From the IMG/VR virus record IMGVR_UViG_2529292889_000013: a DNA stretch of 13,795 nucleotides; one strand, 5' to 3'. Made by a program: the position numbers and the translations under genes. The stretch comes from a virus (taxonomy: Duplodnaviria; Heunggongvirae; Uroviricota; Caudoviricetes). The notes beneath the pieces were generated by a model, which ran no database searches, had not been told where the DNA came from, and saw nothing but the letters and a program-made list of their open reading frames with translations. Of the stretch, positions 6,705 through 8,475 are shown one piece after another. The first letter of the stretch is position 1. Each line of letters begins with the position of its first letter.

Positions 6705-7004
6705 TCAAATAAGTGGTTTGCTGCCTAATTTCATTTTCTGGCGACCAACACAAGTCACACCCATTTCACTGCGTGGCTTGCGGTAGTAAATACGGTTCTG
6801 TTTACGCTCGACTTCTTCTGCCTTCTTGCAGCGAAGGCTTCCGAGTGATGCTGCTTTATCTGCTCTGACGCAACCAGAGAGCTTTAGCGCAATTTTTCGT
6901 GCTAGTCGCTGCTCTTGCATTGCCTGTTCACGTTGAGCCTGTCTGCGTGCTCTGCGGCGATTTCTGGTGTTATCGTCAGCCAGATATGTAATGACTACTG
7001 TCAT
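6705..7004 (-). CDS. N: Antitermination protein N
   Basis: 99-aa ORF with an N-terminal arginine-rich motif (NRRRARRQAQREQ) and C-terminal GVTCVGRQKMKLGSKPLI, matching lambda N's GITCSGRQKIKGKSIPLI. SD GGAGGT upstream; nutL and PL lie upstream. Confidence 0.88.
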   Translation of the reverse strand: MTVVITYLADDNTRNRRRARRQAQREQAMQEQRLARKIALKLSGCVRADKAASLGSLRCKKAEEVERKQNRIYYRKPRSEMGVTCVGRQKMKLGSKPLI

Positions 7005-7111
7005 GTTGACCTCCGATGATTGACTTTGGCGGTGACGCGCCGGGTGCTTATCTTCCAGTTGCCGTTGTGCAGCTGCACTTCACGTCACCCCAAAGCCAAC
7101 TACTCTTTGGT

Positions 7112-7153
7112 TCCCGCATTTCGGCGGGACAATCCCATCAATGTTAAAGAGCC
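7112..7153 (-). promoter_or_regulatory. nutL (boxA plus boxB hairpin)
   Basis: Minus-strand GGCTCTTTAA (boxA-like, cf. CGCTCTTA) followed about 17 nt later by the hairpin UCCCGC-CGAAAU-GCGGGA. The same 18-mer recurs at nutR. Confidence 0.7.
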
Positions 7154-7198
7154 TGCCAATCTGTTCCGTTTGGCTTCCAGCGTCCTGCTGATGGCTAA

Positions 7199-7285
7199 AG
7201 AATACTGCAGGTATTTTATTTTGTAAATACCCAAGGTATTTATTTTTGGTGAAATAATGATAAGCAAATGAATACAAAGGATATT
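7199..7285 (-). promoter_or_regulatory. PL promoter with OL operators
   Basis: Minus-strand -35 TTTACA (7222-7227), 17-bp spacer, -10 TATTCT (7199-7204). Three 15-bp palindromes of type AATACC-N3-GGTATT: AATACTGCAGGTATT 7201-7215, AATACCCAAGGTATT 7226-7240, and weaker AATACAAAGGATATT 7271-7285. Confidence 0.65.
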
Positions 7286-7498
7286 TATTTTTTTGGCGCC
7301 TGCTTGTTCAGTGCTTTTTATGCGGGATATGTGAAGTGGATCCCGATAGCTATTGCTGCCGGGATTATGGGTTAGTCAGCGAAGGTTAAGACGAGAATTA
7401 CCTTAATGATGTCTGCTACAACAGATACGGCCATAGATAAACCAAAGACGATCCAAGCCATAGAGATGTCTTCACTACCATCGTATAGAGTTCCGTAA

Positions 7499-7741
7499 TC
7501 ACTGGTGAAAGGCGTAAATGTCGCGCCTTGATACAACAGGTATAAGCTTGATCCATAGAGGATAAATGCAGATAATCCCTTGTATTGCTATGATCACTAG
7601 AATCATGAAACGAGCTGATCTATGCGCCCAAGCCTGGCTTATTTTTTCTGATAGAGATTTCGCAATAAAAGCATGCGCTAAGCCGTAAATTGTCGAGATT
7701 GCCAACATCCCAAAAAAGCTTGCTATAGCGGTTCCAACCAT
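7499..7741 (-). CDS. Small two-helix membrane protein, about 80 aa, downstream of cI
   Basis: Two hydrophobic stretches (VGTAIASFFGMLAISTIYGLAHAFIA and FMILVIIAIQGIICIYPLWIKLIPVV). Begins just after the cI stop: ATG at 7739-7741, or a TTG at 7760-7762 giving the 87-aa track form. Occupies the position of rexAB in lambda. Confidence 0.5.
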   Translation of the reverse strand: MVGTAIASFFGMLAISTIYGLAHAFIAKSLSEKISQAWAHRSARFMILVIIAIQGIICIYPLWIKLIPVVSRRDIYAFHQ

Positions 7742-7758
7742 AATCGCCCGTTGCGTGA

Positions 7759-8475
7759 TCAAACCAGCCTTAGTTTTGTCTCAATTGCAACGCCTATAAT
7801 CTTACAGTTTCCATTGATTGGCACGAGAGGCCATGCAGGGTTAAGTCCCTTGAGGTATTTATTTCCGCCGTCAATTATCAGCTTCTTGAATGTTGCTTCG
7901 TTAGAGTCAGAAAGTTTTGCTATGACCAAGCTGCCGTTGATCGCCTCCCTTCCGGTATCGAAAAGAACGAATGTTCCCTCTGGAATGCTTAACCCAACCG
8001 GTGCCGTCATTGAATCACCTTCCACTTTAAGCCAGAACGCATTACCTTGAATATGCGCGTCAGACTCAAGCCAAACATCTATGTCTTTAATGGTGTATGG
8101 TTCGCATGCTTCACACCACGAACCAGCCTGGATACTGCTTAACACCGGATACCTCTTTCCTGCTCTGTATTCCCCTGCATACCTTACGTTGGCATCGCTC
8201 TTAAGGCTTTCTGCCTGTTCTGCAACCTTGGCAGCAATTGACTGGCTAAAATCAGCAATTGAGACTTGCAACAATCGTGCAAAACCAGATGCAACCTCAA
8301 CGTTTAGCGCGTTTCTGCCATTAAGATAATGCCCTACCGCTCCTTGGGTGATACCCAGTTCATCAGCGATTGAGTATTGGGTTATTCCCAATTCTTTCTT
8401 TTTTGACTCATACAAAGCCTTAAGCCGCTTAGCGTCTTCGAGCTGTTCTGTCGTCAGTGATTTTTTATTTTCCAT
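7759..8475 (-). CDS. cI: CI repressor (HTH DNA-binding domain plus LexA/S24-like autocleavage domain)
   Basis: 238-aa ORF. N-terminal LTTEQLEDAKRLKALYESKKKELGITQYSIADELGITQGAVGHYLNGRNALN parallels lambda cI; C-terminal AFWLKVEGDSMTAP...FKKLI matches the S24 peptidase domain. Confidence 0.95.
   Translation of the reverse strand: MENKKSLTTEQLEDAKRLKALYESKKKELGITQYSIADELGITQGAVGHYLNGRNALNVEVASGFARLLQVSIADFSQSIAAKVAEQAESLKSDANVRYAGEYRAGKRYPVLSSIQAGSWCEACEPYTIKDIDVWLESDAHIQGNAFWLKVEGDSMTAPVGLSIPEGTFVLFDTGREAINGSLVIAKLSDSNEATFKKLIIDGGNKYLKGLNPAWPLVPINGNCKIIGVAIETKLRLV

Follow-up and report, generated by a model that had tools for sequence, protein, structure and literature searches.

What does the DNA between the cI repressor gene and the leftward operators encode in the viral record IMGVR_UViG_2529292889_000013, where hydrophobic coding is spread over two overlapping reading frames? 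The original prediction, made from the letters of the window (by which we mean the whole 13,795-nt stretch of DNA analysed), described a short membrane ORF directly behind the cI stop and a second frame that stays open past the end of the first. It read the pair either as a multi-pass membrane protein of about 150 residues split by a frameshift or as two small membrane peptides. An ORF and sequence check bore out the coordinates given for both frames, their stops and the internal ATG, and the downstream frame, put at about 70 codons, measured 71 and is indeed hydrophobic (Table 1). The two frames are jointly open for about 28 codons (7502-7587). The second contains an ATG at 7459-7461, followed by MAWIVFGLSMAVSVVADIIKVILVLTFAD, and Kyte-Doolittle windows place hydrophobic segments in either frame's part.

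Table 1. Positions of the immunity operon, its broken distal gene and the flanking operators in the window.
Feature	Position	Strand	Remarks
cI repressor, 238 aa, HTH_3 + Peptidase_S24, HK620 immunity type	7759-8475	-	99.6% identity to HK620 cI
ORF next after cI	7499-7762	-	87 aa from TTG at 7760-7762; TTG overlaps cI stop
hkaS RBS	7747-7752	-	AACGGG in window; AAGGGG in 92/92 relatives
hkaS homologue with +1 insertion	7372-7741	-	370 nt versus 369; alignment with HK620, HF4s and phi296
Truncated product, 80 aa	7499-7741	-	ATG 7739-7741, stop TGA 7499-7501
Frameshift site, one extra T	7574/7575	-	GGGATTATC versus GGGATATC; after codon 56, within second membrane helix
Second frame, 71 codons	7372-7587	-	between stop 7588-7590 and TAA 7372-7374
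Candidate 3' end hairpin of cI-hkaS transcript	7340-7365	-	ATCCCGG...TCGGGAT, 7 nt past hkaS stop
OL operators and pL, bounding the immunity operon	7199-7292	-	HK620 annotation; conserved across lineages
OL operators, AATAC-N5-GTATT type	7201-7215, 7226-7240, 7271-7285	-	
pL	-35 at 7227-7222, -10 at 7204-7199	-	

Comparison with sequenced phages identified the gene. At 95-99% identity, a 601-nt query of the region matched 147 records of E. coli, from 146 genomes, and 16 of phages, namely HK620, HK140, mEpX2, HK630, HF4s, phi296/phi367, 611R6, HZ41 and two Stx2c phages; to the immunity regions of HK620, HK140, mEpX2, HK630, HF4s and phi296, the window DNA is 97-98% identical. The HK620 record has one CDS between cI and OL3, named hkaS and labelled 'unknown', which is 369 nt long and encodes 122 residues from an ATG, and a 369-nt CDS of this kind is present in phi296 as well. 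No gene other than hkaS lies between cI and OL, either in the window or in any related locus. A four-way alignment of the window, HK620, HF4s and phi296 revealed a single additional minus-strand T in the window, and conceptual repair by deleting one base at 7575 turns the two frames into one ORF that encodes a protein of 122 aa. This repaired protein matches PHROG 6534, a family listed as 'unknown function', over the full profile (1-122 of 122, E = 1.2e-78), and is 97-98% identical to database members of phrog_6534. Because the removal of one base gives an end-to-end match to the family, the overlapping frames did not arise by chance.

The window copy lies where members of phrog_6534 do, starting 17-20 nt past an HK620-type cI and ahead of OL, pL and N; the uninterrupted 122-codon ORF of the family is missing, which makes it a disrupted member. 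We conclude, with a probability of about 0.88, that the minus-strand stretch 7372-7741 represents a broken version of hkaS, which closes the cI immunity operon in phages of HK620-type immunity. Unless the break reflects a sequencing error, which is possible, this copy is a pseudogene. The gene it derives from is catalogued without an assigned function, its database entries being GenBank AAK28867, PHROG 6534 and RefSeq WP_000233129 ('hypothetical protein'). Its 80-aa product comprises 56 native residues (predicted helix 1, the cytoplasmic loop and the first half of helix 2) followed by 24 out-of-frame residues. The second frame carries native HkaS residues 57-122, corresponding to the end of helix 2, an acidic periplasmic loop and helix 3 (7381-7461). 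Of the two readings originally offered, the split membrane protein is thus the right one, with a length of 122 rather than about 150 residues and three predicted helices in its intact form.

The insertion is a singleton. The extra base was absent in 92 of the 92 IMG/VR relatives compared. Nor did the insertion allele turn up in the 16 phage records or in 142 E. coli genomes, in which matches to a 61-nt query all spanned 60 nt or less and none was 100% identical. The insertion-bearing 30-mer had no exact match in species-representative genomes, IMG/VR or JGI metagenome contigs; in a control search, the wild-type 29-mer was present in 101 IMG/VR contigs, of which 95 were analysable. Likewise, the window's exact 87-, 80- and 54-aa products were missing from a collection of about 15 billion proteins. 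Such isolation, together with an otherwise intact operon, is in keeping with an error of sequencing or assembly, in which case the real phage would carry an intact 122-aa hkaS with no biological split.

We consider such an error less likely than a real insertion on three grounds. First, the insertion (T to TT) does not lie in a homopolymer run. Second, hkaS carries two more damaging private changes. Comparing the window with the 92 IMG/VR relatives over cI, hkaS and OL, we found three private or near-private substitutions in cI, all at third codon positions as judged from their coordinates, and four private changes in hkaS: G to C at 7750, the insertion at 7575, A to T at 7508 and a synonymous change at 7426. 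The change at 7750 alters the conserved ribosome-binding site, from AAGGGG to AACGGG, and that at 7508 replaces Tyr78, a residue invariant in six intact aligned family members, with Phe. Third, alleles broken independently of this one are known from nature or from databases. In HF4s (locus L002, 1673-1906), hkaS is broken by a deletion that shortens A6 to A5; the IMG/VR locus L101 has lost one base close to the equivalent of 7666; and three database proteins (P0005, P0007 and P0009) contain out-of-frame N-terminal stretches. The gene is therefore occasionally lost or mis-sequenced, never at the window's site.

Set beside HK620, the window copy has the same DNA position, after cI and before OL3, OL2, OL1 and pL, and differs by the insertion, the weakened ribosome-binding site and Phe78. 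The occurrence of the frameshift together with a weakened ribosome-binding site and a substitution at an otherwise invariant residue favours genuine decay, and the hkaS of the window would then be a truly decaying gene rather than the site of a lone base-calling error. The pattern of private changes suggests relaxed constraint on a truly inactive gene, although the events are few and the pattern is not statistically strong. With helix 3, the periplasmic loop and the motif at the predicted periplasmic end of helix 2 all missing from the 80-aa fragment, the allele has most probably lost its function; a truncated two-helix product could retain some activity.

Intact relatives show what the gene looks like elsewhere. 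Alignment to related prophages recovered a single ORF in HK620 and phi296, an intact 122-aa HkaS in 93 of the 95 analysable IMG/VR loci, and a 369-nt span annotated 'hypothetical protein' (WP_000233129, for example) in 60 of 60 sampled E. coli matches. Across five lineages at 52-82% identity, intact HkaS always has 122 codons and zero indels; the relatives at 82% (Hafnia-type and metagenomes), 60% (Salmonella), 54% and 52% identity are each exactly 122 residues long. Pairwise pN/pS ranges from 0.16 to 0.5 and is alike for codons 1-56 and 57-122, which indicates that the part lying in the window's second frame is protein-coding and constrained. Protein-level conservation of this downstream part is present in relatives of 52-60% identity. 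Intact hkaS is thus a single conserved 122-codon ORF under purifying selection.

These comparisons bear directly on the other half of the original prediction, that the locus encodes two separate functional membrane peptides, one of 80-87 aa and another of 29-54 aa from the second frame. Both ORFs are hydrophobic, and the second could start at the ATG at 7459-7461. Yet the split arrangement is unique to the window, and relatives encode both parts as one ORF without indels. Nor do relatives share Met94, the residue encoded by that ATG, as a start, the position being occupied by Val in HK620 and by Thr or Tyr in others. With the split being a singleton, we reject the two-peptide reading as very improbable. 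A programmed +1 ribosomal frameshift restoring full-length HkaS, for which the 28-codon overlap of the frames leaves room, has a negligible probability, since the insertion is a singleton and no relative requires such a shift, slippery or repeat sequence is absent at the site, and the other broken alleles are interrupted at different places, which also argues against a recurrent event at 7575.

The family is narrow and tightly bound to one immunity type. A word-indexed search gave twelve HkaS clusters at 90% identity, and a profile search of 1.84 billion representatives returned one full-length 50%-identity representative and a 44-aa fragment, that is, the family itself only. In every recovered locus, hkaS begins 17-20 nt past a repressor of the same type (238-240 aa, HTH_3 + Peptidase_S24) and is followed by three operators, pL and the N gene. 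The cI and hkaS genes each occur in 146 of 5426 complete E. coli genomes, at 147 places each, and co-occur in 146 of 146; the HK620-type repressor is thus present in 2.7% of complete E. coli genomes, Stx prophages included. HkaS diverges faster than the repressor, with identities of 52-82% against 85-95% to the window's cI across the recovered loci. In single loci, the identities to the window of HkaS and of the adjacent repressor are 60 and 86% (L004), 52 and 88% (L008), and 82 and 95% (L010). Despite this unequal divergence, the two genes were never found apart in the 146 E. coli genomes.

The signals around hkaS are those of a distal operon gene. An AGGA/GGGA ribosome-binding site 7-10 nt ahead of the ATG is conserved in all lineages, and this ATG is the native start, as divergent relatives have no in-frame start upstream of it. 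In the window, hkaS starts 17 nt past cI, and we found no consensus promoter or terminator on the minus strand between the two genes. A hairpin lies shortly past the hkaS stop in every lineage, its sequence differing from lineage to lineage (the window, L004, L008 and L010); no clear U-tract accompanies it in any lineage examined. Given the 17-nt gap, the lack of a detectable promoter or terminator, the conserved ribosome-binding site and the hairpin, hkaS most likely forms the distal part of the pRM/pRE repressor transcript; judging from this layout, intact HkaS would be made in lysogens.

Several further features of the region deserve mention. The HK620 record places 'tIMM' on OL3 (about 7260-7290 in the window), where we saw no hairpin. 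The final 25 nt or so of hkaS are unusually conserved as DNA across lineages; TIMM function in lambda reportedly requires the distal end of rexB. At the centre of OL1 (7208), the window has a private substitution (AATACTGCAGGTATT), with another base in 92 of 92 relatives. On the plus strand, a convergent hydrophobic ORF of 35 aa (7268-7375; MNTKDIYFFGACLFSAFYAGYVKWIPIAIAAGIMG) overlaps the hkaS stop; its ATG adjoins OL3, and it is annotated as a protein in HF4s. We considered it as a possible type I toxin antisense to the 3' end of the operon and rejected this reading because the frame is not conserved: 27 of 95 close relatives have it altered or shortened, and the lineages at 82%, 60% and 52% identity lack the ORF altogether. 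The ORF is probably not a gene. An Rfam scan of 6900-8000 gave chance-level matches only.

For the intact protein, sequence analysis predicts a three-helix inner-membrane protein. Hydropathy of HkaS shows three hydrophobic segments, and an AlphaFold2 model, computed from a shallow alignment of six sequences (mean pLDDT 87), has helices at residues 2-29, 41-74 and 89-121; residues 31-38 form a further, short helix, and the loop at 75-88 includes a small hairpin. The loop at 27-44 contains four Lys/Arg residues, and that at 71-93 four Asp/Glu and zero basic residues. By the positive-inside rule, this charge distribution would place the N-terminus outside and the C-terminus inside. Conservation is concentrated in three places: the putatively cytoplasmic loop, with the pattern LS.KI.Q.W.H..ARF (L30, S31, K33, I34, Q36, W38, H40, A43, R44 and F45); the predicted periplasmic end of helix 2, with S.YLLYQGATF.PY (S65, Y67-Y70, T74, F75 and Y78); and the C-terminal ILVLT.A. 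The window product would retain everything from helix 1 through the cytoplasmic loop to the middle of helix 2, and lose the periplasmic motif and helix 3.

Searches for a function gave little to build on. In remote-homology searches with HkaS, Pfam yielded only a sub-threshold match to TssN (E = 0.05), and NCBIfam and PDB sequences yielded nothing. Among the PADLOC-DB defence-system models, no family matched with E <= 1, and fold searches with the HkaS model returned generic helical bundles only. A literature search for hkaS, with HK620 and the accession numbers, found no paper on the gene, and hkaS goes unmentioned in the excerpt of the SieA paper available to us (PMC10883804).

The position of the gene, between cI and OL/pL, had suggested the lambda rexAB slot. 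This much is correct, and a true homologue of lambda rex encoding a RexB-type abortive-infection channel would fit the shared slot and the small, multi-pass inner-membrane product. RexB has four transmembrane segments with both termini in the cytoplasm, and by depolarising the membrane it excludes T4 rII among other phages. HkaS, with three predicted helices versus four, aligned with lambda RexB by hhalign at a probability of only 0.6% (E = 0.099). Furthermore, no locus contained a RexA-like second gene, and PADLOC gave no match. Homology to rex is accordingly highly doubtful, and the analogy is positional only, there being neither RexB homology nor a RexA-like partner gene.

As an analogue, the lambda system remains instructive. 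RexB, too, is a small protein of the inner membrane; it is produced in lysogens, from the same slot and presumably the same kind of transcript (bioRxiv 10.1101/2021.04.19.439022). Beyond phage exclusion, RexAB acts as a modulator of the lysogenic switch, and two-hybrid tests show an interaction of RexB with CI (bioRxiv 10.1101/2021.04.19.439022). The hkaS locus differs in comprising a single gene, whose product has three helices rather than four, and in having no internal pLIT-like promoter on the coding strand.

Phage 434 Hex offers a second comparison. Encoded in the order pRM-cI-hex, it excludes P22 and stabilises lysogeny by blocking the RecA-stimulated cleavage of its cognate repressor (PMC3564112). 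Like hkaS, hex is a lone accessory gene straight after a 434-like repressor; it lies on the repressor transcript, as hkaS probably does too, and the cI of HK620 is annotated as 434 cI-like. Judged from its published sequence (PMC3564112), Hex has one hydrophobic N-terminal segment and a soluble part, whereas HkaS consists almost entirely of predicted membrane helices. The two sequences are unrelated: hhalign of HkaS against the Hex sequence taken from that paper gave a probability of 0.08%. P22 SieA and similar superinfection-exclusion proteins provide a third point of reference, being prophage-encoded and located at the inner membrane (PMC10883804). An action of HkaS against the DNA-delivery machinery of an incoming phage would be compatible with the conserved motif on its predicted periplasmic face. 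HkaS has no PADLOC or PHROGs homology to these proteins, and hkaS travels with the immunity cassette, not with the virion type: its spread over P22-like, lambda-like and Stx-type phages is unlike what would be expected of an injection-specific blocker.

On the basis of position and by analogy with these systems, HkaS at the inner membrane might exclude superinfecting phages or modulate the stability of the lysogenic switch, and we regard the two roles as about equally likely. The strict linkage to one repressor type across phage types, together with the conserved, putatively cytoplasmic loop, points to the switch; the conserved motif predicted to face the periplasm and the evolution of HkaS at a faster rate than cI point to exclusion. 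We tentatively suggest, as a possibility we do not favour over others, that intact HkaS is a single-protein, lysogen-expressed inner-membrane factor that acts either in exclusion or, through its cytoplasmic loop, on repressor stability or induction, with the window as a natural null allele.

For the window itself, the finding matters little: the feature is real but ordinary. It is a defective form of a gene that has stood in the annotation since the HK620 genome record and is catalogued as a PHROG with no function assigned, and so is of low novelty. The intact gene is of more use, belonging to a very narrow family that is selectively maintained and inseparable from one repressor type. If the role suggested here is true, HkaS would be a third, unrelated answer to the slot for a gene after cI, beside RexAB and Hex. 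It makes a cheap, well-defined candidate for a knock-out addressing exclusion and lysogen stability, for which the window supplies a natural loss-of-function allele for comparison.
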